This document shows, piece by piece, positions 6,259 to 22,402 of a stretch of DNA of 24,000 nt (positions within the stretch are counted from its first letter, which is position 1; the number at the start of each line of letters is the position of its first letter). The DNA lies in NCBI RefSeq assembly GCF_042651445.1, contig NZ_JBHSDC010000002.1, forward strand, positions 679,148 through 703,147, given 5' to 3'. The position numbers were made by a program, and so were the translations under genes. The DNA is from Parasediminibacterium paludis. Lineage in GTDB: Bacteria > Bacteroidota > Bacteroidia > Chitinophagales > Chitinophagaceae. A model generated the notes under the pieces. The model had not been told where the DNA came from, searched no databases, and saw only the letters and a program-made list of their open reading frames with translations.

Positions 6259-6846
6259 ATGTCATCAATTATACTTGCATCACAATCGCCTCGTAGAAAA
6301 CAATTACTAGAATGGGCTGAAATAGACTTTGAAGTAATTGTAAAAGCTACAGACGAAGTTTACCCGCCAAATTTATCAGTGGAGGATGTACCAGTGTATA
6401 TTGCAAGAGAAAAAGCATTGGCCGTACAAACTTTTGCGCAAACGGTTTATCATGCAGAACATCGAAAAGAAATCATTATTGCCGCTGATACAGTGGTGGT
6501 TTTGGACGATAGAATTATTGGCAAGCCAGCCGATAGGCAAGAAGCCATTGCAACGCTTACAAGCTTATCAGGGAAAGCGCATCGTGTTATTACAGGCGTG
6601 GTTATCTTAGAAGGTAAAAAAGAAATTGCCTTTGCTGATATTACAAAGGTTTGGTTTCACGAGCTAACGCAAGCTCAAATTGAGTTTTATATTGATAAAT
6701 ACCAACCTTACGATAAAGCTGGTGCCTATGGTATTCAAGATTGGATTGGTGTGGTTGGCATAAAAGCTATTGAAGGCGATTTTTATAACGTAATGGGCTT
6801 GCCTATAAGTAGGGTAGTGCAACAATTACAGTTATTAAAAAATTAA
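6259..6846 (+). CDS. maf: Maf-like nucleoside triphosphate pyrophosphatase
   Basis: 195 aa with ILASQSPRRKQLL at the N-terminus and YDKAGAYGIQ near the C-terminus, the hallmark Maf motifs. Confidence 0.9.
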   Translation: MSSIILASQSPRRKQLLEWAEIDFEVIVKATDEVYPPNLSVEDVPVYIAREKALAVQTFAQTVYHAEHRKEIIIAADTVVVLDDRIIGKPADRQEAIATLTSLSGKAHRVITGVVILEGKKEIAFADITKVWFHELTQAQIEFYIDKYQPYDKAGAYGIQDWIGVVGIKAIEGDFYNVMGLPISRVVQQLQLLKN

Positions 6847-6905
6847 TATAGTAGTTTATATTTTCATTAGTTTAGCTGCTTATTTGTTAGCTCAACTATT
6901 GGTAT

Positions 6906-8180
6906 ATGAACGAAAAATTATTACAATTCATCTGGCAATTTCAATATTATAACCGTCAAGAATTAACTACAACTATTGGTGAAAGCCTTTCAATTGTTGC
7001 CCCTGGCAAGCATAATCTTAACCAAGGGCCCGATTTTTTAGATGCCTGTATTCAAATAAATAACTTACGTTTTGCTGGCAATATTGAATTGCATGTTAAA
7101 GCATCTGATTGGTATAAACATCACCATCAAATAGACGTTACATATAATAATGTGATACTACATGTAGTTTGGGAAAATGATGCTGCTATTACCACTGAAA
7201 ACGGCACATCGTTACCAACGTTGGTATTGCACGATAGAGTACCCAAAGTGTTGCTAGAACGATATACACAACTGATGCAAGCTGCTAATATTCCTTGTCA
7301 TGGCAATGTTGCTCCTAGGTTAAGTGAGCTTGGTTGGCATGCTTGGAAAGAACGTTTGGTAGCCGAACGGCTAGAACGAAAATCCAAAAAGATTTTGGCA
7401 TATTTAGAAGCTACCAAGCAACATTGGGAAGAAGTATTCTGGATAATGCTTGCGGGCAATTTTGGTATTAAGGTAAATACAGAATTGTTTGAAGCGATGG
7501 CGCAGACTATTTCTGTAAATATTTTGGCAAAGCATAAGCACCAAATACACCAAATAGAAGCGCTATTACTAGGGCAAGCTAATTTATTAAATGGCTCTTA
7601 TTCAGACCATTATGCTATTTTGTTACAAAAAGAGTATCGCTTTCTTCAGAAAAAATACCAGCTTCAACCCGTATCTATTCAGCCTAATTTTTTACGAATG
7701 CGGCCAGCTAATTTTCCAACAATTCGATTGGCGCAATTAGCGATGTTGATAGTGCATTCTGTGCATTTGTTTTCAAAGATTAAAGAGCAAAATGATGTAG
7801 CATCAGTAAAGCAACTGTTTAATGTAACTGCCAACGATTATTGGCACACGCATTATCAATTTGATACCGAAAGTGATTATTTAGAGAAAAAACTTGGCGC
7901 TACTGCCATCGATAATGTGTTGATTAACACGGTTATTCCTGTGCTATTTGCTTACGGGATGCACATGCAAGACGAAGCTATCAAAGAAAAAGCCATCAAG
8001 TGGTTGATGGCTGTAAAAAAAGAAAATAATACGATTATAAAGCAATGGCAACAAATACATGTTGCGATTGCTTCTGCCTTTGATAGCCAAGCATTGATAG
8101 AATTAACAAATAATTATTGCACTCAAAAACGCTGTTTAGAATGCGCTGTAGGCAATAGTATTTTTAAAAATGTAGAATGA
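6906..8180 (+). CDS. DUF2851 family protein
   Basis: 424 aa. The N-terminus MNEKLLQFIWQFQYYN...GPDFLDA...IELHVKASDWYKHHH is the characteristic DUF2851 opening, recalled from Bacteroidota annotations. Confidence 0.78.
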   Translation: MNEKLLQFIWQFQYYNRQELTTTIGESLSIVAPGKHNLNQGPDFLDACIQINNLRFAGNIELHVKASDWYKHHHQIDVTYNNVILHVVWENDAAITTENGTSLPTLVLHDRVPKVLLERYTQLMQAANIPCHGNVAPRLSELGWHAWKERLVAERLERKSKKILAYLEATKQHWEEVFWIMLAGNFGIKVNTELFEAMAQTISVNILAKHKHQIHQIEALLLGQANLLNGSYSDHYAILLQKEYRFLQKKYQLQPVSIQPNFLRMRPANFPTIRLAQLAMLIVHSVHLFSKIKEQNDVASVKQLFNVTANDYWHTHYQFDTESDYLEKKLGATAIDNVLINTVIPVLFAYGMHMQDEAIKEKAIKWLMAVKKENNTIIKQWQQIHVAIASAFDSQALIELTNNYCTQKRCLECAVGNSIFKNVE

Positions 8181-8252
8181 CCACTAAACGGTTTGGTGGT
8201 TAATTTGTTAAATAGCTACAATTTAACAATTAAGCACGTAAACCATTAAATG

Positions 8253-8657
8253 CTACCACTCAAAAGTGATGTCTAGTTCCATATCTGGGTGTAAACTTCT
8301 TTCTACTGGGCAAGTACGTGCTACACGTTCTAGTATTTCTTTGGTTTTATCATCTAAATTTAAAGATTTAGACATGGTTACATGTGCTTTTATGCCCCCA
8401 ATTCTACGTGGGTCAGCCTTCATAATTTTCGTGATGTCTACCTTTGAGTCGGTAAGGTCAATATCCATGGAATTAGCTTTAATACCCATAGTAGTAAGCA
8501 TGCAACTACCCAAAGCAGTAGCTACCATATCTGTAGGGCTAAAACGTTCGCCTTTACCCATATTATCGGTCGGGGCATCGTTTTCTATCACTGAAGTACT
8601 CTGTAAGTGTGTCATCTCTGTTCTTAACGCACCTTTATAAATTACGGTTGATGTCAT
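8253..8657 (-). CDS. OsmC/Ohr family peroxiredoxin-like protein
   Basis: 134 aa with two conserved Cys contexts (LGSCMLTTM and ARTCPVERSL) at OsmC-family spacing. Confidence 0.85.
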   Translation of the reverse strand: MTSTVIYKGALRTEMTHLQSTSVIENDAPTDNMGKGERFSPTDMVATALGSCMLTTMGIKANSMDIDLTDSKVDITKIMKADPRRIGGIKAHVTMSKSLNLDDKTKEILERVARTCPVERSLHPDMELDITFEW

Positions 8658-8694
8658 TTGACTAGATTTTATATAAATTTACAAACACAAATAT

Positions 8695-9531
8695 ATGCAC
8701 GTGAAGAAGATAATTGTAATGACCATGATCTGTTTGCCGTTTTTAGTAGCAGCACAGCAAAATAAGGCACAGGAAAGACAGCAAAAAGCCGCCGAAAAAA
8801 AAGCAAAAATTGAACAATTAATCAAACAAGAAGAGGAAGGCGCATTGGTATTTCAAAAGCAAAGCACTTTTGGTTTAAACTTTAATAGCGATGGGTTTGG
8901 ATTTACTTACGAGCATGGTAAGTACAAAACTATCAAAAAAACCAACCTTTGGTGGCTTTCTTTAGGTGAGCGTAAAGACCCTAAACAGTATAAGCAAACT
9001 AACACATTTACAGGCGGTGGTGGAGCGGTTGTTTTCTTCGGTAACTCTTATGTATATGGCAAGCAAAATAACTTTTACTACCTACGTTTAGGTTTTGGTC
9101 AGCAAAAATTGCTTGGCGCAAAAGGCAGCAAAAACGGTGTGGCAGTGTCTGCTATTTATGGTGGTGGCTTAAGTCTTGGAATGTTAAAGCCCTATTATGT
9201 ACAAGTTCCAGACAATTCAGCGCAAGGAACTGGTACAAAAGATATCAAATACACCGATTCTACAGCATCGACTTTCTTAGATCCTACAGCCATTATAGGC
9301 GGTAGCGGTTTTGGAAAAGGTTTGGGCGAGATAAAATTTGTACCTGGCGCCACCACAAGGGTAGCACTTCGTTTTGATTATGGCAGATTTCGAGAAACTA
9401 TTAGTGCACTTGAAGTAGGTATAAATGCTGAATTCTATAGTCAGGCAATGCCTATTTTAGTAGGTGTCAATGACCAAAAGAAGTTTTTCTTCAATGGCTA
9501 TATTGCCTTACAATTTGGTAGAAGAAAATAG
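8695..9531 (+). CDS. Exported hypothetical protein (possible outer-membrane beta-rich protein)
   Basis: 278 aa. Signal-like N-terminus (MTMICLPFLVAAQQ), a Lys/Glu/Gln-rich linker, then a Gly/aromatic-rich alternating sequence. No family recognised. Confidence 0.7.
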   Translation: MHVKKIIVMTMICLPFLVAAQQNKAQERQQKAAEKKAKIEQLIKQEEEGALVFQKQSTFGLNFNSDGFGFTYEHGKYKTIKKTNLWWLSLGERKDPKQYKQTNTFTGGGGAVVFFGNSYVYGKQNNFYYLRLGFGQQKLLGAKGSKNGVAVSAIYGGGLSLGMLKPYYVQVPDNSAQGTGTKDIKYTDSTASTFLDPTAIIGGSGFGKGLGEIKFVPGATTRVALRFDYGRFRETISALEVGINAEFYSQAMPILVGVNDQKKFFFNGYIALQFGRRK

Positions 9532-9671
9532 TTTTTAATTACTATATTAAGGAAATCATACTTACTAATCAGTAATAGGTTAATTTCCTATCAGTTTACA
9601 TATGTTTTAGCATCATCAGCCAAGCATTATTGTATCAAGTCATCGCTTAAATAGGCTGAGACATTTTCATT

Positions 9672-10739
9672 ATGGCAATTCAAAAAATAACGATTCAAGC
9701 ATACTTACAAGAACCACATAATTACTTATTGCTAGATGTAAGAAGTCCGGGTGAATATGCACACGCACATATACCCAATGCCATCAGTTTGCCATTATTT
9801 AATAACGAAGAACGAAGTGTTGTGGGTACCGCCTACAAACAAGAAAGCCGTGAAAATGCTATAAAAATTGGTCTGAAATATTTTGGACCAAAAATGGCAG
9901 AAATGGTAGAGGCAGTTGAAAAAATTTTAGCTAAACATAACCGGAAACCGAACAGCCCTAGTGCTACAAGTACAAAAATAGTGGTGCATTGCTGGCGAGG
10001 CGGTATGCGTAGTGCAGGCGTTGCTTGGCTTTTAGATTTATATGGCTTTGATGTATACACCATAATTGGCGGTTATAAATCTTACCGACATTGGGTAATG
10101 CAACAGTTTGATAAAGACTACCACTTTAAAGTCGTTGGAGGCTTTACTGGTAGTGGTAAAACAGAAATATTACAAATATTAAAGCAGGCGAATGAAGTGG
10201 TTATTGATTTGGAAGCATTAGCACAGCACAAAGGCTCCACGTTTGGTAATCTAGAGGCCATTCAGCAACCCTCACAAGAAATGTTTGAGAACATGCTAGC
10301 AATGGCATTGTATGCCGCTAATGACCGCATTATTTGGCTAGAAGATGAAAGTCAACGTATAGGAAATGTGACCTTACCCAACATACTATATCTTAAAAAG
10401 CAATCTTCGATGGTGTATTATATTGATATCCCTTTTGAAGAAAGATTACAGCATTTAGTAGCTAGCTATGGCAGATTCAAAAAAGACCAAATTGTAGCAG
10501 CCATTATGCGTATAAAAAAACGTTTGGGGGGCTTAGAAACGAAAACGGCTATAAATTTTCTTCTAGAAGATGATATACAACATTGCTTTGCAATTTTATT
10601 ACGCTACTACGATAAATACTATTTAAAAGGGTTAGAACAAAATAACCGACAAATTAAAAAAATAACCTGTAATACGGTAAATGCAGTTTGCAATACAAAC
10701 AACCTGCTTGCTATTGTAAAAGAAGAAAAGGCATTATAA
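9672..10739 (+). CDS. selU: tRNA 2-selenouridine synthase
   Basis: 355 aa. N-terminal rhodanese domain with active-site HCWRGGMRS, followed by the P-loop GGFTGSGKT. This is the YbbB/MnmH architecture, and the gene is adjacent to selD. Confidence 0.9.
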   Translation: MAIQKITIQAYLQEPHNYLLLDVRSPGEYAHAHIPNAISLPLFNNEERSVVGTAYKQESRENAIKIGLKYFGPKMAEMVEAVEKILAKHNRKPNSPSATSTKIVVHCWRGGMRSAGVAWLLDLYGFDVYTIIGGYKSYRHWVMQQFDKDYHFKVVGGFTGSGKTEILQILKQANEVVIDLEALAQHKGSTFGNLEAIQQPSQEMFENMLAMALYAANDRIIWLEDESQRIGNVTLPNILYLKKQSSMVYYIDIPFEERLQHLVASYGRFKKDQIVAAIMRIKKRLGGLETKTAINFLLEDDIQHCFAILLRYYDKYYLKGLEQNNRQIKKITCNTVNAVCNTNNLLAIVKEEKAL

Positions 10740-10808
10740 CACCATCTCATTTCTGGTACTTGGTTAACCTCAATTATTTATTTTAGAATTTAAGAAACAC
10801 AACAATCA

Positions 10809-11882
10809 ATGGCAGCAAATTCAAGTATACCCAATCTTAGTGAAATTAAGTTAACACAGTATTCGCATGGTGCTGGTTGTGGCTGTAAAATTTCGCCTAA
10901 GATGCTCGATCAAATATTGGCCACCAATTTAGCCACACCAGATAATGATAAATTGATAGTTGGAAACCATAGTAAAGATGATGCTGCTGTGTATGATATG
11001 GGTAATGGTACGGCGCTAATTGCCACTACTGATTTTTTTATGCCCATCGTTGACGATCCTTATAATTTTGGTAGAATAGCCAGCGCTAATGCCATTAGTG
11101 ATGTTTATGCAATGGGCGGAAAGCCCATATTGGCAATTGCGATATTGGGTTGGCCTATTAATATTTTGCCGCCAGAAGTAGCACAACTAGTAATTGAGGG
11201 CAGCCGTAGTATTTGTAAAGAAGCGGGTATTTCACTGGCTGGCGGTCATAGTATTGATTCCCCAGAACCCATTTTTGGCTTAGCGGTTAATGGCATTGTG
11301 CCTATTGCAAACATTAAGCAAAATAATACAGCACAGCAAGGCGATATACTTTTTCTTACTAAGAAAATAGGGGTTGGTATTTTAACCACTGCAGAAAAAA
11401 ATGGCTTACTAGCAGAAAAGGATACAGCATTGGCCGCTTTACAAATGATGCAATTAAACAAAGTGGGTGAAGCATTAGGTATGATGAAAGAAGTCCATGC
11501 AATGACAGATGTAACTGGTTTTGGTTTACTAGGACACTTGACAGAAATGGCAGAAGGAAGTGATGTAAGCGCAGCCGTGCATTTTGATAAAGTACCATTA
11601 ATAACCCACGATTTGCCAGCCTACATTGATAAAAAATGCGTTCCTGGTGGTACCAATAGAAATTGGGATAGTTATGGCAGCAAAATAGCATTTGCTACTG
11701 GTATCAATCAGGTTTATACAAAAGCCATATTAGCCGATCCGCAAACGAGTGGTGGCTTGCTCATTGCAGTTGCACCAGAAGCCGCTGAACAAGTACAAGC
11801 ATTATTACTATCGCACAATTTATATGCTGAGCCAATAGGTGTGATTACTGAAAAAAATGAATATGTGGTAACTGTGGTGTAG
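10809..11882 (+). CDS. selD: Selenide, water dikinase (selenophosphate synthetase), Cys-type
   Basis: 357 aa, alignable along its whole length to E. coli SelD by eye (LTQYSHGAGCGCKISPK..., TTDFFMPIVDDPYNFGRIA, GGHSIDSPEPIFGLAV, MTDVTGFGLLGH, DPQTSGGLL). The catalytic position is a TGT Cys codon (10878-10880), not TGA. Confidence 0.95.
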   Translation: MAANSSIPNLSEIKLTQYSHGAGCGCKISPKMLDQILATNLATPDNDKLIVGNHSKDDAAVYDMGNGTALIATTDFFMPIVDDPYNFGRIASANAISDVYAMGGKPILAIAILGWPINILPPEVAQLVIEGSRSICKEAGISLAGGHSIDSPEPIFGLAVNGIVPIANIKQNNTAQQGDILFLTKKIGVGILTTAEKNGLLAEKDTALAALQMMQLNKVGEALGMMKEVHAMTDVTGFGLLGHLTEMAEGSDVSAAVHFDKVPLITHDLPAYIDKKCVPGGTNRNWDSYGSKIAFATGINQVYTKAILADPQTSGGLLIAVAPEAAEQVQALLLSHNLYAEPIGVITEKNEYVVTVV

Positions 11883-12078: not shown

Positions 12079-12310
12079 AAACTAGAGTCACCAAAAAGCA
12101 AGTATGAATTCGCTATAGCGAACTGTAGTCACCAAAAAGCAAACTAGAGTTATAAAAAAGCGAGCATGAGTACACTACAGCGAACTGGAGTCACCAAAAA
12201 GTGAACAGGGGTTACCAAAAACAGAACTCAAGTCACAAAATTTGGAACTCGAGTTCGTTCCAGCGAACTGTAGTCACCAAAAAGCAGATTAGAGTTCTAA
12301 ATATGGAACA
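12079..12310. repeat. Degenerate tandem array of ~11 units of 20-21 bp, approximate consensus AACTNNAGTCACCAAAAAGCG
   Basis: The best-conserved copies contain AGTCACCAAAAAG at 12087-12099, 12127-12139, 12189-12201 and 12272-12284. Diverged copies are GTTATAAAAAAG, GTTACCAAAAAC and GTCACAAAATTT. A ~62-bp higher-order period is visible: 12081-12141 resembles 12142-12203. No ORF is present. Confidence 0.8.
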
Positions 12311-15074: not shown

Positions 15075-15363
15075 AATATGTATTTTTACGAAATTCGATA
15101 AGTCAATCATTATGCCACGGCATTTGTAAGTGAAAAATTGGCAGACTGAGCAGGTGATAGTTTTTATGGAACGAACTTTTGTCCTTCAATCGGCAGTAGT
15201 TGCGTCGCACACTGCAACTATTGTCACTTTTTTCAACTTTGTCCAAGGCGAATAGTTGTCTGAACTAGGATTTTGTACGATTTAAAGGATTTTGTGATGA
15301 AAAATTTGCAAAGGCATATAATTTTGTATACTAAACAATAGTAGAAGTTGTATTAAAGTTTCT

Positions 15364-15475
15364 GACTATTGACTATTGACTATTGACTATTGACTATTGA
15401 CTATTGACTATTGACTATTGACTATTGACTATTGACTATTGACTATTGACTATTGACTATTGACTATTGACTATT
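15364..15475. repeat. Perfect heptanucleotide tandem repeat (GACTATT)x16, 112 bp
   Basis: Counted unit by unit: unit starts at 15364, 15371 ... 15469, with no substitutions. The next base (15476) is the A of the hscB ATG. Stops occur in all six frames of the repeat, so it is non-coding. Confidence 0.97.
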
Positions 15476-16023: not shown

Positions 16024-16107
16024 GCCCAGATGGCGGAATTGGTAGACGCAGCAGACTCAAAATCTGCCGTTCGCAAGGATGTGCAGGTTCGATTCCTGTT
16101 CTGGGCA
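16024..16107 (+). tRNA. tRNA-Leu (anticodon CAA), class II with a long variable arm; CCA not encoded
   Basis: Acceptor stem GCCCAGA/TCTGGGC, D-arm GCG-GAATTGGTAGA-CGC, anticodon stem GCAGA/TCTGC with loop CTCAAAA, T-arm GCAGG-TTCGATT-CCTGT, discriminator A. Confidence 0.93.
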
Positions 16108-16108
16108 C
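16092..16108 (+). repeat. attL core (17-bp direct repeat, part of the functional tRNA)
   Basis: ATTCCTGTTCTGGGCAC, identical to 22386-22402. Confidence 0.85.
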
Positions 16109-16168: not shown

Positions 16169-16192
16169 ACTTACAGTTTTACTGACAGCTTT
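16169..16192 (+). promoter_or_regulatory. Subterminal 24-bp repeat, left copy (candidate recombinase arm-type or accessory site)
   Basis: ACTTACAGTTTTACTGACAGCTTT matches 22251-22274 (ACTTACAATTTAACTGACAGTTTT) at 21 of 24 positions in the same orientation. Confidence 0.55.
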
Positions 16193-16213
16193 GTAATTTC
16201 TTCTTTTTATAAA

Positions 16214-16249
16214 AAAGCCTACTTGAAATCAGCGTTTCAAGTAGGCTTT
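16214..16249. other. Perfect 15-bp-stem hairpin (bidirectional terminator-like)
   Basis: AAAGCCTACTTGAAA (16214-16228) and TTTCAAGTAGGCTTT (16235-16249) with a 6-nt loop. An A-run lies before it and a T-rich stretch after. Confidence 0.6.
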
Positions 16250-16351
16250 CTAATTTTCGTATTTCTCTCATTAACGATTATAACAGACAATACAAGTCAA
16301 TTCAAGTAAACAAATAAGTAAATTAATTAGTCAATAAACCGTACTATTTAT

Positions 16352-16801
16352 ATGAGTAATAAGCTAAAATGTATCTATTGCGGTACTGAATATCCGTACC
16401 GAAAAAATAAGGTGTATTGTTCTCCAAGCTGTAAAACAATGGCTTATAGAGACAGACAAGCTGGCAAAACTATTTTGGGTGAAATGCCAAGTGAAAACTA
16501 TGATGTTGAGCGCAAAGCCTTTTATATGTCCGATTATGAAGGGTGGCAGTATAAAGATGATTTTTCTTTTCAGATATTTTGTTTCTTAATAAAGGGATTG
16601 CCCGAAAATACAAATGAAACCTTTTTGAGAAATTATGCAGCCACAATAGTAAATGATAATAGATTTTATGAGCAAGTTGAAGAAAGTAACCACCCAATAG
16701 GTAAGGAGTTTAAGAAATTTCAAGAACTATTTTTTCAAAATAAATATCAAATTAAAAACGAAAGGTTGTCTGAAAAAATGCAGCCTATAAATCAAAATTA
16801 A
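16352..16801 (+). CDS. Hypothetical protein with an N-terminal 4-Cys zinc ribbon
   Basis: 149 aa. CIYCG-x12-CSPSC followed by KTMAYRDRQ, a C-x2-C...C-x3-C ribbon of the FCS/TRASH-like kind seen in small mobile-element proteins. The rest is unrecognisable. Confidence 0.65.
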   Translation: MSNKLKCIYCGTEYPYRKNKVYCSPSCKTMAYRDRQAGKTILGEMPSENYDVERKAFYMSDYEGWQYKDDFSFQIFCFLIKGLPENTNETFLRNYAATIVNDNRFYEQVEESNHPIGKEFKKFQELFFQNKYQIKNERLSEKMQPINQN

Positions 16802-16812
16802 AAAAATATACT

Positions 16813-17004
16813 ATGGCAAAGAAAATCTTTAAGCTAATCAATGCAGCAACAAAAATTACAGAACTAAGAGACTTTCAAAAATTCAAATTTGAAAATCTGA
16901 AAGAAGGTAGTGAGCAATGGAAAATAGAATATCAATTGTTTTTAGAGTATGACCTACTCGTAAATGTAATTAATGACCACAACGATGGGAGCAAAACTTT
17001 GTAA
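16813..17004 (+). CDS. Hypothetical small protein (63 aa), 11 bp downstream of the zinc-ribbon ORF
   Basis: ATG ORF in a tight tandem arrangement, followed by a strong terminator. No recognisable motif. Confidence 0.5.
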   Translation: MAKKIFKLINAATKITELRDFQKFKFENLKEGSEQWKIEYQLFLEYDLLVNVINDHNDGSKTL

Positions 17005-17008
17005 TTTT

Positions 17009-17041
17009 AAAAGCGGTGAAGTTATCCTTCACCGCTTTTTT
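17009..17041. terminator. Bidirectional terminator between convergent ORFs
   Basis: AAGCGGTGAAG (17011-17021) and CTTCACCGCTT (27-37 of the 170xx block) form a perfect 11-bp stem with a 5-nt loop. A's lie upstream and TTTTTT downstream. The stop of the minus-strand 95-aa ORF lies in the loop. Confidence 0.8.
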
Positions 17042-17309
17042 CTTTAAATAAATCATTGTGCATCCGCTGAACTTCATGTTCCATAATATCAAAAATTTGC
17101 TCTTTTAATTTTGATATTCTTTCAGTTCCATTATAAAGAAGACCACCATCAATTTCATATAAAATAGACATTGCTTCTGTGCAAGAACCTAAGTAATCAT
17201 CAACCATTTCTTGTTCGCTTTCTAATGAATTATTCTCTAATTCATCATCATTCTTTTTTTCGTTTTCCATTTTTAAATTTTTAAAAAGTTCTTGTAGTAA
17301 GTTACTCAT
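17022..17309 (-). CDS. Hypothetical highly acidic small protein (95 aa)
   Basis: By my count 23 Asp/Glu against 10 Lys/Arg. There is an acidic N-terminal tract (ENEKKNDDELENNSLESEQEMVDD). The ATG is embedded in an 11-bp inverted repeat of the iteron motif. Confidence 0.6.
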   Translation of the reverse strand: MSNLLQELFKNLKMENEKKNDDELENNSLESEQEMVDDYLGSCTEAMSILYEIDGGLLYNGTERISKLKEQIFDIMEHEVQRMHNDLFKEKSGEG

Positions 17310-17481
17310 CTTACTACGTTACTACAATTGTAGTAAGATGCTAATTTTTATCTTACTACGCTAAAAATCAAACCAATAAAGGGTTTTGTTGATTTTGTAG
17401 TAAGTTGTAGTAAGTTGTTTTTTCTATCTTACTACACTAAAAGCCAATGCAGTAAAGGCTTTGACGGTTTTGTAGTAAGAT
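17292..17481. promoter_or_regulatory. Iteron field: at least 9 copies of GTAGTAAG/CTTACTAC in both orientations (candidate origin of replication or operator array)
   Basis: ATCTTACTAC at 17308-17317, 17350-17359 and 17426-17435. Its complement GTAGTAAGAT at 17330-17339 and 17472-17481. TTGTAGTAAGTT at 17292-17303, 17395-17406 and 17405-17416. A variant GTTACTAC at 17318-17325. The field lies between the stop of the primase gene (17491) and the start of the 95-aa ORF (17309). Confidence 0.75.
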
Positions 17482-17490
17482 AAAAGTGAA

Positions 17491-19605
17491 TTATACCTTT
17501 TTTATATAGTAACCTTTAACGGGAAACATTTTTTCTAGCCTTTTTGTACCTCTCACAAACCCTAATTTTTTAAGTACACTACCTATTTTTTTAAGACTTA
17601 GTTTGTTTGTATTTGCTCCTTTATGAATAACCATATATTGCAAAATGTCGTTTGCAGTCATAAAATTGCTTTCCTCTTGTTTACTATCAATAGCAAAATA
17701 TGTTGTAATCATTTCCTCCTCAATACTGCGTTCTTCGTAATCCCTATTTATTTCTTCGTTTTCCCTTTTCTCATCTAAGGTTAATTGATACTTAAAGCCA
17801 TTATCAAACAGGTATTTCGCTTCACACCAAACCTTATTTATATCAATATAATTGGGGCTGCCCTTTAACCAGTAGCCCTGTTCAAAACTATCAATCTCAA
17901 AACATAGCCATCTTGCGCTCCCTGTATCATCATTTAAAAACTCATCATTATTGGTACTACCTAAAAAATTAACTCGTCTAGGGTGAAACTGGCGGCGGCG
18001 GCCATAAGGTAAACGCTCGTTTATACTGGCCATACTTATTTTCGCTTTTAGTTGGTTTACATCGTATTTGCTCAAACTGGCTAATTCATCAAGGTTTATA
18101 ATAAAACTTGTTGCCAATGCAATAACTCCGTCTTTATCCATTGCTATATTTTCAACAAAATATTCGTTCAAAGCTGGGGGGCAAAGCCATCTACAAAAAG
18201 AACTTTTACCAATGGTTTGTTCTCGGTTTATAATAACAAAAACATGCTTGTTGAAGTTGTTATTTGTCATTTCTGTAACGGTGCTACATGCAACACAACG
18301 GACTAACATTTTCTTGAAATGCTTATTAAAACGCTCTTGGTTTTTGGCTTTAATTTTCTTACATAATTCGTCAATGTATGAAGGTTCGGTTTGTGGGTTG
18401 TATGTTAGAGAATTGAAATAATCAGTAATGGGATTGAAGAATTTTACAAAATCGCTGTCAAGCAATGATGCAGTTTTTGAAGGCGAATATTTAAAGTAGT
18501 TATGCTCTAATAAACGGCTAATTACATTCTCATTTGCTTCCATCCATAAATTATCATTGCCCTTTGCTTTGTACTCTGTTTTCTCATTTACGATGTTTTT
18601 TCTAAACTCAAACCGTTCGTTTAAAAAGTTTTCAACCTGTACAATTAAAGGGAGGTTTTTATTAGTAGGGTTGGGGTTAATTTGCTCAGTTTCTTTCTTC
18701 GCTTCAACTGTAATTTTCGAGCTGTTATTTGAAATGACAATTCCAAAATCTTTTGCTATACCAAAAAGGCTTTCCCATTTTCTGCTACCATTAGGATTTT
18801 TACAACAAGCTGTGTATTGTTCATCCGTTTTTTGTTGGTTGTAGTTTGATGCAATAGCACTAATTCTTTTAAAATAAGAACGTCCATTTTCACCCAAACC
18901 ATTCGCAATTGCAAAGGCAATGTCTCGCCATTCACTATATCCCTTTCTATTTGTAATATCAATATTTCGGGCTTCTAATTCCTTGCATAAAGCCTCAATA
19001 TCCTGTTGCTTTTTGTCTGTGGCAAATGGTATCTGTTTTCCTGAACTGGTATCTTCTGAAATTATAAAAACAGTGCTTTCTTGGTTGTAATAAAGTTTGC
19101 TATCAGCACTAATAAAAAATGCCCTGCAAACGTCTTTACAAGCTGTATCAATTACAAGGTTATACTTGTATTTAAAATAACTTTCTAGGGCTAAAAATGA
19201 AGGCTTATGCTTTGTGGCATCTATTTTAATGATTGCTTTTAGTCCTAAACCTCTAGGAGATAGAAATAGACTTAAAATAAACGCATCTTGCCTTAATAGT
19301 TCCCTTACGTGGTTGATATTAAAATTGGTTTGGTCTTTTGCATCAATATCAATTTGCATTAAACCGGAATGTTGTTGTAGGCTTTTTGCATCACGTTTAC
19401 CCGGTGCAAATATGCCTGAAAGAGTAGCATAGGGCAAAGCTGCTTTTATTGCGTCCTGTTGCTCACCAGTTGCCTTTCTTAAAGCAATTATTTGCTTAGA
19501 ATATTTACCCTGTTTTATCCAGTCAAGAAAAGTAGAAAGTTCGATTGTAGAATTTTGGTGTTCTCTACTTTTTAAAGGCGATGTGTAGAAAGAAAAATTA
19601 TACAT
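17491..19605 (-). CDS. Replication protein: BT4734-like AEP primase-polymerase N-domain plus a VirE/D5-type P-loop NTPase C-domain
   Basis: 704 aa. The N-terminal region with ...LMQIDIDAKD (DxD-type acidic motif) and ...LSPRGLGLKAII resembles the BT4734/VirE-N primase family. The central region resembles a PriCT-like segment (YSEWRDIAFAIAN). The C-terminal half has Walker A-like REQTIGKS (aa 461-468, nt 18202-18225) and Walker B FIINLDE (aa 501-507). Confidence 0.8.
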   Translation of the reverse strand: MYNFSFYTSPLKSREHQNSTIELSTFLDWIKQGKYSKQIIALRKATGEQQDAIKAALPYATLSGIFAPGKRDAKSLQQHSGLMQIDIDAKDQTNFNINHVRELLRQDAFILSLFLSPRGLGLKAIIKIDATKHKPSFLALESYFKYKYNLVIDTACKDVCRAFFISADSKLYYNQESTVFIISEDTSSGKQIPFATDKKQQDIEALCKELEARNIDITNRKGYSEWRDIAFAIANGLGENGRSYFKRISAIASNYNQQKTDEQYTACCKNPNGSRKWESLFGIAKDFGIVISNNSSKITVEAKKETEQINPNPTNKNLPLIVQVENFLNERFEFRKNIVNEKTEYKAKGNDNLWMEANENVISRLLEHNYFKYSPSKTASLLDSDFVKFFNPITDYFNSLTYNPQTEPSYIDELCKKIKAKNQERFNKHFKKMLVRCVACSTVTEMTNNNFNKHVFVIINREQTIGKSSFCRWLCPPALNEYFVENIAMDKDGVIALATSFIINLDELASLSKYDVNQLKAKISMASINERLPYGRRRQFHPRRVNFLGSTNNDEFLNDDTGSARWLCFEIDSFEQGYWLKGSPNYIDINKVWCEAKYLFDNGFKYQLTLDEKRENEEINRDYEERSIEEEMITTYFAIDSKQEESNFMTANDILQYMVIHKGANTNKLSLKKIGSVLKKLGFVRGTKRLEKMFPVKGYYIKKV

Positions 19606-19989: not shown

Positions 19990-20268
19990 TCACAATTTAA
20001 TGGGCAAAACTTGCCTTGTCTTCAGTGCTTCTAACACTTCAGTTTTGCTGTAAAAAATTTTGTTATCAATACGGGTAAAAGGGATTTTACCGTCATTGCG
20101 CCACTTTTGTAGTGTAGTGGTGCTAATGCTAAAAAGCTGCATTACTTCTTCACTTGAAAGAAGTTTATCCTGTTGAATTTCTCTTTCAGAAAGTACCTTT
20201 CTGACTGTTTGCTCAATTTGAGAAATGAAATCAACTAAAGGGACAGAAATAATAATATTGCCTTGCAT
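19990..20268 (-). CDS. Excisionase/AlpA-type helix-turn-helix DNA-binding protein
   Basis: 92 aa. LLSSEEVMQLFSISTTTLQKWRNDGKIPFTRIDNKIFYSKTEVLEAL is the typical MerR-superfamily Xis/AlpA HTH pattern (..T.LQ.W...G.IP......K..Y....V...L). Confidence 0.75.
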   Translation of the reverse strand: MQGNIIISVPLVDFISQIEQTVRKVLSEREIQQDKLLSSEEVMQLFSISTTTLQKWRNDGKIPFTRIDNKIFYSKTEVLEALKTRQVLPIKL

Positions 20269-21030: not shown

Positions 21031-22239
21031 TTATCTTTTTTGTGTTCTACTTAATTTCATTATTTCAACTTTATTAAAGTCATCATCGTTCTGTATATAC
21101 TTTTTAAGTGTTTGAAAACTGGCATGTCCTACAACACGCCTAACAACTTCTTGTGGTACGCCTATTTGAATGCAATTAGTTATAAAACTGTGCCTTGCAA
21201 CGTGCCAAGTCATCATTTCCCAAGCCTCAAATATTTCTTCTTTAGTTTGCCTACTTTGCTTTTGTGTGTAGTTAAAAGGTCTTACTAGGTTAGCTTTTTT
21301 ACCTATTTCTTTCAAATAGTCATTACCCTTTTGGTTTGATATTGTAGGCAATGGTTGGTTGTCGTTCCAGTATTTATTAAACAGTTCTAGGAGTTCAGGA
21401 ATAACAGGGATTTTAACAGGTTCGTTTGTCTTTAATGCTACTTTGTTTATAAAGCCATTTTGTAAGTGGATAGGCTTTAACGTTACTAGATCACTATAAC
21501 GCAACCCACAATAGCAACCCATTAAAAATAAGTCTCTCACCCTGTCTAATCGTGGCTCCAGTTCGACTTTTGAAAGTGCAATAATTTCATCGTGTTTTAA
21601 AAAGAAATGGTCTTTACCGTCTTCATTTGGGATTTTCCATTTTAGGTATTGTGAAGTAGTATGAAATGATTTTTCTTTTGCCCAATTGAGAAATGTTTTA
21701 AGGTTCTTAATGTAGAAACCAAAAGAGTTATCATACATGCCTAAAAAGTCTCTAAAACGCTTGTAAAAATCTGCATCAAAATCAGTAAAAGAAATTGGGG
21801 CTGAAAGTGTATCTGAATAGGTTTTCAAATACTTAAAAGTTGTATTGTAGCCCTTTACGGTTCTAGCTGCTTTGTCTGAACCATGACTTTCAATAAATTT
21901 TTGAAATAATGATAGCGGTTTAAAATCTTGTATTTCAATAGAGTTTGACCAGGCTAACTGTGAAACAATACTTTCTTTGTTTACCTGGTGTCCTAAACGT
22001 TCAAACTTTAAAACTATTCCTTCAATTTCATTTTGCTGTTCTTCAAAGATTGCGTTAAACTCATTGTAGTTGGCTCGTGTTCGTTTTACTTTTTGATTTT
22101 CCTTATCCCAATGCTTTTTTTCTATTGCTTGACCTGTACTAATCCTAAAACGGTTACCTTTATAGTGAACAGAATGATAAACCGTAACAGGTTTATCGAC
22201 CGTTAATTTATCCAAATTCAAGTTCAATTTTACTCCCAT
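21031..22239 (-). CDS. int: Tyrosine site-specific recombinase (integrase), Bacteroidota Arm/SAM-like/catalytic layout
   Basis: C-terminal catalytic motifs GLRYSDL (Arg), HVARHSFIT (H-x-x-R) and GHASFQTLKKY (His...Tyr). The N-terminus (VYHSVHYKGNRFRISTGQAIEKKHWD) resembles the Arm DNA-binding domain of Bacteroidota integrases. The start is set to the ATG at 22239 rather than the track's TTG at 22251. Confidence 0.9.
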   Translation of the reverse strand: MGVKLNLNLDKLTVDKPVTVYHSVHYKGNRFRISTGQAIEKKHWDKENQKVKRTRANYNEFNAIFEEQQNEIEGIVLKFERLGHQVNKESIVSQLAWSNSIEIQDFKPLSLFQKFIESHGSDKAARTVKGYNTTFKYLKTYSDTLSAPISFTDFDADFYKRFRDFLGMYDNSFGFYIKNLKTFLNWAKEKSFHTTSQYLKWKIPNEDGKDHFFLKHDEIIALSKVELEPRLDRVRDLFLMGCYCGLRYSDLVTLKPIHLQNGFINKVALKTNEPVKIPVIPELLELFNKYWNDNQPLPTISNQKGNDYLKEIGKKANLVRPFNYTQKQSRQTKEEIFEAWEMMTWHVARHSFITNCIQIGVPQEVVRRVVGHASFQTLKKYIQNDDDFNKVEIMKLSRTQKR

Positions 22240-22250
22240 GATTAAAAACA

Positions 22251-22274
22251 ACTTACAATTTAACTGACAGTTTT
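22251..22274 (+). promoter_or_regulatory. Subterminal 24-bp repeat, right copy (in the integrase leader)
   Basis: ACTTACAATTTAACTGACAGTTTT matches 16169-16192 at 21 of 24 positions. It lies 12 bp upstream of the int ATG on the opposite-strand numbering. Confidence 0.55.
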
Positions 22275-22385: not shown

Positions 22386-22402
22386 ATTCCTGTTCTGGGC
22401 AC
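22386..22402 (+). repeat. attR core (displaced 17-nt copy of the tRNA-Leu 3' end)
   Basis: ATTCCTGTTCTGGGCAC, identical to 16092-16108. The upstream sequence does not continue the tRNA. Confidence 0.85.

Follow-up and report, generated by a model that had tools for sequence, protein, structure and literature searches.

Within a 24,000-nucleotide stretch of the Parasediminibacterium paludis genome (Bacteroidota, Chitinophagaceae; NCBI RefSeq assembly GCF_042651445.1, contig NZ_JBHSDC010000002.1, positions 679,148 to 703,147; hereafter the window, whose numbering we use), an integrated island of ~6.29 kb carries a field of nine short repeats, or iterons, just past the stop codon of a gene for a 704-aa primase-helicase. 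Judged from sequence comparison, this field (17294-17479) is quite probably the vegetative replication origin of the island, read by the primase-helicase. The original prediction, made from the letters of the window alone, had proposed the same role, and the proposal gains support from the homology of the 704-aa protein to the Rep initiator of SaPI1, a Staphylococcus aureus pathogenicity island (SaPI), from a phylogenetic footprint in close relatives, from arrays across the wider protein family and from the confinement of the motif to the field. Binding by the 704-aa protein, melting of the DNA and subsequent replication are what we infer from these observations.

A confined and conserved repeat array

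Eight of the ten copies of GTAGTAAG in the window fall at 17294-17479, starting at 17294, 17330, 17397, 17407 and 17472 on the plus strand and at 17310, 17352 and 17428 on the minus strand, and a ninth, variant copy (GTAGTAAC) occupies 17318-17325 on the minus strand. Dinucleotide-preserving shuffles predict 0.76 copies of GTAGTAAG per 24-kb window, and ten copies were reached in none of 100 shuffles. The extended core TGTAGTAA is found seven times in the window, each time inside the field, and no second cluster of the GTAGTAAG motif was found in the island or the 24-kb window. The claim of at least nine copies within 190 bp is thus borne out, and motif enumeration, which had been suggested as a check, confines the motif to the field. 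The longer forms that had been described were likewise all recovered: ATCTTACTAC at 17308, 17350 and 17426, GTAGTAAGAT at 17330 and 17472, TTGTAGTAAGTT at 17292, 17395 and 17405 (the latter two in tandem, 10 bp apart), and an 11-bp inverted repeat with arms at 17307-17317 and 17330-17340. Two bracketed modules with A/T-rich interiors had also been described; the modules are present, 76 bp apart and 81% identical to each other, but the interior is A/T-rich only at 17360-17396 (GC 0.27) and not at 17436-17471 (GC 0.39).

The sites span 8-12 bp and occur in both orientations, the first beginning 12 bp past the stop codon of the 704-aa open reading frame (ORF) at 17491-17493, and in gene sense their orientations read R F RR F R FF R. 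Melting is predicted to be easiest in 30-mers on either side of the field, at 17270-17299 (the 30-mer at 17270 ranks at the 98.6th percentile) and 17480-17519. The A/T tract at 17271-17291 may serve for unwinding, as the 5' leader of the downstream ORF, or both. We found no Rfam family in the field, and the only hidden reading frame in it is a 22-codon TTG ORF that is not a plausible gene. A sigma-70 promoter and terminator scan of the field, which does not cover Bacteroidota promoters, returned nothing.

Four relatives of the 704-aa protein, at 85, 67, 65 and 64% identity, are encoded on contigs with the same gene order. The original prediction had called for comparison with homologous elements, and in all four a repeat array lies at the equivalent intergenic position. 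In an intergenic alignment of five loci (the window with L081, L082, L083 and L085, whose proteins are 85-64% identical), the nine iteron blocks show little or no change, whereas the sequence between them has diverged freely. Start-to-start spacings in the relatives are 44/45, 21-23, 10, 43-45, 22, 12-15, 7-8 and 16 bp, which places the first six sites at roughly whole helical turns. With sites and geometry kept and spacers not, the pattern is characteristic of an array bound by protein, not of an RNA or coding element. The features of the field, in order from the primase-helicase stop codon, are:

17472-17479, plus strand: iteron 1, CTTACTAC in gene sense ('R'); exact match, invariant block in the five-locus alignment
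17436-17471: spacer 1, 36 bp, GC 0.39; sequence variable, length kept at 36-37 bp in relatives
17428-17435, minus strand: iteron 2, 'F' in gene sense; exact match, alignment
17397-17414, plus strand: iterons 3 and 4, in tandem 10 bp apart ('R R'); exact matches, alignment
17360-17396: spacer 2, 37 bp, GC 0.27; sequence variable, length kept at 35-37 bp in relatives
17352-17359, minus strand: iteron 5 ('F'); exact match, alignment
17330-17337, plus strand: iteron 6 ('R'); exact match, alignment
17318-17325, minus strand: iteron 7, the variant GTAGTAAC ('F'); alignment
17310-17317, minus strand: iteron 8 ('F'); exact match, alignment
17294-17301, plus strand: iteron 9 ('R'), formerly read as codons 3-5 of a 95-aa ORF; exact match, alignment
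17271-17291: A/T-rich tract TTTTTAAATTTTTAAAAAG beside the last iteron; melting ease, T/A columns partly conserved in relatives

The relatives also bear on this 95-aa acidic ORF downstream of the field. The ATG first assigned to it (17309-17307) does fall inside the inverted repeat, as had been noted, but it is probably not the start codon. In L081, the 85%-identical relative, a TAG codon comes in frame after the equivalent ATG, and Met14 of the window ORF (ATG at 17270-17268) is where the conserved start ATGGAAAA of the relatives aligns. These comparisons suggest that the ORF was mis-started and that its true start probably lies at 17270, giving a protein of 82 aa and leaving the whole field intergenic. 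The protein is fast-evolving and its position is conserved in the relatives. Since the repeat-embedded ATG is probably not a start codon, the earlier suggestion of an operator built on the inverted repeat over it loses its basis, although an effect of the field on read-through transcription into the downstream ORF is conceivable.

The primase-helicase and its C-terminal domain

The 704-aa protein matches the VapE-like domain of Pfam (E = 2e-31), and the one solved structure that it matched is 7PDS chain A, SaPI1 Rep1 with DNA (E = 2e-17 with a family profile and 2e-11 with the single sequence). Its C-terminal domain (residues ~646-704; 17494-17670, minus strand), predicted to be winged-helix-like from AlphaFold2 (AF2) modelling and Foldseek comparison, is the proposed iteron reader. 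The AF2 model of the C-terminal 109 aa has a pLDDT of 83 and the topology H-E-H-H-E-E, and its matches in BFVD are the C-termini of phage VapE or D5-type primase-helicases (E = 4e-5). Within the clade whose motif is CTTACC, the helicase core is 82-98% identical while the C-terminal domain is only 38-56% identical. Comparing one group (L014, L019, L024 and L029) with another (L025, L026, L035 and L006) gives cores that are 83-87% identical and a linker plus winged-helix region at 38-56%. Such a contrast is as would be expected of a specificity module, and suggests rapid divergence of the C-terminal module or its exchange.

Arrays across the family

To look beyond close relatives, we picked 80 loci from species-representative genomes by the protein alone, blind to repeats (33-46% identity, nearly all Bacteroidota). 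Arrays were scored by the commonest non-trivial 7-mer on both strands in 83 loci, against a background of 5127 windows from those loci. At least five copies of a locus-specific 7-mer occur within 300 bp past the stop codon in 38 of the 83 loci, as compared with 1.1% of background windows, and 47 loci have such an array within 1 kb of the stop. In ~40 loci the post-stop array is the densest repeat site of the entire 8-14-kb locus. The motifs are lineage-specific (CTTACTAC, CTTACCAC, ATCTTACC, TTACAATG, TTACATGA, TTACTCGA, CTTACTT, TGACTACA and others) and most share a (C)TTAC half.

The geometry of the field recurs as well. Of 40 loci, 38 have a first site in gene sense, with orientation strings such as RR-F-RRR-FFF. 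Over the 40 loci, R-to-F gaps are broadly distributed with a peak at ~40-52 bp (many are shorter), and F-to-R gaps concentrate at 19-27 bp and gaps between sites of like orientation at 8-11 bp. Further, in L043-L080, where separate genes encode primase and helicase, it is the gene with the helicase that the arrays accompany. Among 13 loci that span whole contigs we found no terminal overlaps indicative of an episomal or circular form.

In a sub-family of distant relatives (L005, L007, L008, L010, L015, L017 and L051), the densest array (AAAAAGTC or AAAGTCCC, 6-9 copies) lies ~750 bp upstream of the primase-helicase gene, before a gene for a helix-turn-helix protein of the HTH_17 family, at ~5250 in locus coordinates (~2850 in L007). 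These loci may have a relocated origin or a different kind of site.

Arrays of this kind also occur in phage. In Flavobacterium phage mymlan6-1, 11 of 14 AGGTAAC copies fall at 16783-17683 of its sequence, starting 4 bp past the stop codon of a VapE-type gene. Two copies directly follow that stop; the other nine are on the far side of a T5orf172 nuclease gene (16860-17423), which looks like a homing-type insertion into the putative origin. This phage has no annotated integrase or HTH_17 gene, so the arrays are separable from integration functions. In metagenomes, a scan for the tandem iteron pair gave 64 places, of which 29 were true arrays (at least five TACTACA copies within 500 bp); 12 of the 29 adjoin a detectable VapE homolog, 11 of them within 600 bp.

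Arrays of CCTACTACA with a similar build (RR-F-RRRR-FF) are present in the metagenome contigs L104 (2781-3181), L144 (1963-2363) and L119 (4521-4921), where no VapE homolog was detectable; a DnaB_C helicase gene lies upstream of two of them, and an S49 head-protease-like gene is close to two. L098 (5467-5660), and also L109 and L151, have a different kind of TACTACA repeat, a regular tandem array with a 26-bp period (TACTACAAACTTAGGCGCTAAACAAA) that is not beside a primase-helicase gene.

Comparison with known systems and a possible mechanism

SaPI Reps are self-loading superfamily 3 (SF3) helicases, and the SaPI origin comprises 6-12 iterons immediately downstream of rep, at least two on each side and in opposite directions, that are bound by the C-terminal winged helix of Rep; in SaPI5 primase and Rep are fused, and a Rep without its C-terminal domain loses both origin binding and replication (PMC9371898). 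The SaPIs and other phage-inducible chromosomal islands (PICIs; SaPI1 Rep1, SaPI5 PriRep5, SaPIbov1 Rep) are the closest known system. The P. paludis island shares with them a homologous SF3 helicase initiator core, fused to a primase as in PriRep5, a set of short iterons in both orientations directly past the rep-type ORF (nine here, within the range of 6-12), and a small integrase-bearing island as the setting; a C-terminal winged-helix reader like that of Rep is predicted here from a model. It differs in its host, Bacteroidota rather than Firmicutes, in its BT4734-type archaeo-eukaryotic primase (AEP), and in its size of only 6.3 kb without recognisable packaging or capsid-remodelling genes. 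Further, the field has no central A/T block but two fixed 36-37-bp spacers between inward-facing iterons, with the A/T tracts flanking.

In satellite phage P4, the alpha protein is a primase and SF3-type helicase in a single polypeptide, whose C-terminal winged-helix domain binds the octamer iterons of the origin. The 704-aa protein resembles it in uniting primase, helicase and a predicted winged-helix reader. However, P4 needs crr, a second iteron cluster several kb away, and the island has no second cluster; the primase is of another family, and the P4 domain was not matched significantly in either sequence or fold. Iteron plasmids with Rep_3/RepA initiators (R6K, F, pPS10) likewise have repeated, helically phased sites beside the initiator gene, but theirs are 17-22-bp direct repeats read by a Rep that switches between dimer and monomer and recruits DnaB via DnaA or DnaC. 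The island has 8-12-bp sites in both orientations and an initiator that is itself a helicase, and no Rep_3 domain was found by Pfam in any island ORF.

Minimal marine phage satellites (PICMI, VEIME) are integrative elements of 5-7 kb that carry an integrase, a primase/helicase and an HTH protein resembling AlpA or excisionase, and lack capsid genes (PMC10803314, PMC9618062). The island matches them in size class, in its integrase, HTH and primase/helicase content, in having defined attachment (att) sites and in lacking capsid genes; its recognisable genes give no sign of helper-phage induction or packaging. In the passages of these reports that we consulted, the satellites' origins are not described. 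Viral contigs of IMG/VR hold only three distant relatives of the protein, a result that speaks neither for nor against a satellite lifestyle.

By analogy, replication of the island could proceed as follows. After excision of the island, the 704-aa protein would bind the nine CTTACTAC/GTAGTAAG iterons through its winged-helix-like C-terminal domain. The inward-facing iteron sets, which bracket the two fixed 36-37-bp spacers and are followed by a compact cluster beside the A/T tract, would position SF3 helicase hexamers, probably two face to face. These hexamers would open the duplex, either within the spacers or at the flanking A/T tract, and self-load. Primers would then be made by the N-terminal BT4734-type AEP domain with PriCT-2 and extended by a host polymerase or replisome.

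Weighing the origin against other functions

Several observations weigh against reading the field as an origin bound by the primase-helicase. The field has no A/T-rich centre, its spacers having GC contents of 0.39 and 0.27 next to a window mean of ~0.35. The winged-helix assignment comes from a model: its best PDB fold matches in Foldseek are nearly all winged-helix DNA binders, including the origin recognition complex (ORC), but at non-significant E values (at least 0.3), with the P4 origin-binding domain (1KA8) at rank 44 among these weak matches, and searching PDB sequences with a profile of the C-terminal domain returned spurious matches only. Across the family, ~36 of the 83 loci have no strong array within 1 kb downstream, and in some loci the array is upstream rather than downstream. 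Those TACTACA arrays that adjoin dnaB or S49 head-protease genes, without a detectable VapE homolog, show that the motif family is not exclusive to the primase-helicase family. Co-variation between iteron and protein, which the original prediction had expected for the C-terminal domain, is weak and confounded by descent, with rho of 0.13-0.17 for motif similarity against the identity of the helicase core, the linker or the winged helix. A cis element beside a gene co-diverges with that gene in any case, so comparative data alone cannot name the binding protein. A candidate specificity rule in the wing, by which Lys697 would go with T after TTAC and Tyr with C or A, was rejected, as it amounts to roughly one clade split and has exceptions in L046, L093, L114 and L149.

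The repeats might instead be an operator for another island protein that controls transcription into the acidic ORF. The HTH_17 protein is the main alternative candidate for binding them: in at least 43 related loci its gene is found shortly upstream of that for the primase-helicase and is thus co-inherited with the arrays. The primase-helicase gene and the acidic ORF are co-oriented with no terminator found between them by our scan, which would put a protein bound at the field on the path of the transcript, and the last four iterons precede the revised start codon by 24-70 bp. Nevertheless, nine sites over 190 bp with a conserved long-spacer geometry are unlike a simple operator, motif copies are absent near the promoter regions of the HTH_17 gene and the int operon, arrays follow the helicase gene in loci without a detected HTH_17 gene and in a phage without an annotated one, and the homologous SaPI system has its origin at exactly this position. 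We therefore regard an operator in place of an origin as quite unlikely. We hold much the same view of a variant in which the field is an origin but its working units are hairpins or cruciforms of single-stranded DNA (ssDNA), read by the AEP primase and its helical PriCT-2 module in the way that RSF1010 ssiA and ssiB are read by RepB'. The gene-sense strand of the field folds as ssDNA at -33.3 kcal/mol, far better than shuffles (z = -5.7), with facing iterons forming 12-bp stems, and an AEP primase with a helical C-terminal module is indeed fused to the helicase. RSF1010 offers the precedent, since RepB' uses 40-nt inverted repeats within oriV (PMC8567376). Yet such a fold follows automatically from inverted copies of one motif, and the inner hairpins within the spacers are not conserved in the relatives. 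Tandem same-orientation pairs (8-11 bp) are as conserved as inverted ones, which fits binding to duplex DNA rather than hairpins, and the characterised homologous system reads duplex iterons; a hairpin-based origin is accordingly improbable.

Packaging, partition, transfer (oriT) or integrase arm sites, bound by a terminase small subunit, a centromere-binding protein, a relaxase or the integrase, would be a further possibility, which we rate as highly unlikely. TACTACA arrays do lie near head-protease genes in phage- or satellite-like contigs, and the main array of mymlan6-1 is ~850 bp upstream of terS. The Bacteroides element NBU1 also has its oriT 3' of the primase gene prmN1; unlike an NBU1-like oriT region, the island has no relaxase or Mob domain detected by Pfam or PHROGs in any of its ORFs. 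Neither partition ATPase, terminase, capsid nor packaging genes were recognisable among the island ORFs by Pfam and PHROGs. We reject an integrase arm-site function of the field because of its distance from the att sites (attL is 1.2 kb away, attR 4.9 kb) and because a separate, end-specific 14-nt motif, TWACTGACAGYTTT, is the likelier arm-type site. That arrays are tightly coupled, family-wide, to the helicase gene's 3' end is predicted by an origin and not by any of these functions.

Bacteroidota genomes and metagenomes commonly carry small integrase-plus-primase islands, and we know of no description of how they replicate; the BT4734/VirE family literature that we examined mentions no origin. 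If the field is an origin read by the primase-helicase, it provides a concrete example together with a search grammar (an array right past the helicase stop codon, R...F geometry and a CTTAC half-site), parts for replicating or suicide vectors in poorly tractable Bacteroidota, and help in annotating such elements. It would also extend to another phylum the SaPI scheme, in which a self-loading helicase works with an iteron origin next to it; this is an expected arrangement in a new place and overturns nothing. More speculatively, BT4734/VapE-type replicons across Bacteroidota, including phages, islands and satellite-like elements, might share one origin grammar, with the origin as a point of coupling or interference between satellite and helper, an idea that we consider doubtful. 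This grammar may consist of a conserved CTTAC-type half and a lineage-specific half, in inward-facing sets around fixed 35-50-bp spacers. Given the recurrence of the half-site and of TACTACA in phage-like contigs (L104, L119) and in islands, an island initiator could fire or block the origin of a co-infecting phage, or the reverse.

The island and its surroundings

The island is integrated at a tRNA-Leu(CAA) gene and is bounded by a 17-bp direct repeat, ATTCCTGTTCTGGGCAC. Its minus strand encodes, in order, the integrase, an unassigned 229-aa ORF, the HTH_17 protein, a 75-aa ORF and the 704-aa protein, followed by the field and the acidic ORF, after which there are two small plus-strand ORFs. 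The identified features are:

16092-16108, plus strand: attL, the 17-bp repeat ATTCCTGTTCTGGGCAC, 3' end of tRNA-Leu(CAA) (16024-16108)
17022-17270, minus strand: small acidic ORF 3' of the field, start probably at Met14, 82 aa; L081 in-frame stop, conserved ATGGAAAA start
17491-19605, minus strand: 704-aa primase-helicase with BT4734-like AEP primase, PriCT-2, VapE-like SF3 helicase and DUF3874; Pfam, PHROGs, SaPI1 Rep homology
19990-20268, minus strand: HTH_17 (excisionase/AlpA-like) protein; Pfam, PHROGs
21031-22251, minus strand: tyrosine integrase, Bacteroidota-type, with Arm-DNA-bind_5, SAM_5 and Phage_integrase domains; Pfam
22386-22402, plus strand: attR, second copy of the 17-bp repeat

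The window holds just two copies of the motif TWACTGACAGYTTT, both in the same orientation, at 16179-16192 (71 bp inside attL) and 22261-22274 (112 bp inside attR), and this pair is a better candidate for integrase arm-type sites than the field. Also just inside attL is a long perfect hairpin at 16212-16250 (AAGCCTACTTGAAA...TTTCAAGTAGGCTT), which overlaps an Rfam match to PK-repBA that scores 24 bits, below the gathering score of 45, and is probably due to chance. Between the acidic ORF and a convergent 63-aa ORF, a hairpin with a 13-bp stem and T-runs on both sides (17009-17039) is likely a strong bidirectional terminator.

The three island relatives that have enough flanking sequence (L081, L084 and L085) share a chromosomal site beside an HscB-like gene, which may be an integration hotspot. 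A second integrase is found beside island relatives at the same site in L082 (656-1723) and L085 (1-3045), the latter region also having a reverse transcriptase with a PRTase-CE gene; these modules are defence-like or mobile. In L083 a second element with integrase and HTH_17 genes (6797-11019) stands in tandem with the island relative.

Finally, we observed two other repeat regions in the window. Imperfect tandem repeats with 21-bp and 62-bp periods (12079-12240; unit AGCGAACTGGAGTCACCAAAA) lie in a gene-poor stretch at ~11.9-13.1 kb. Between the divergent dnaK and hscB genes, a perfect heptanucleotide tandem, (TGACTAT)16, at 15363-15475 runs up to the start-codon region of the HscB/DnaJ-like gene and is a candidate for a slipped-strand, phase-variable promoter or leader.

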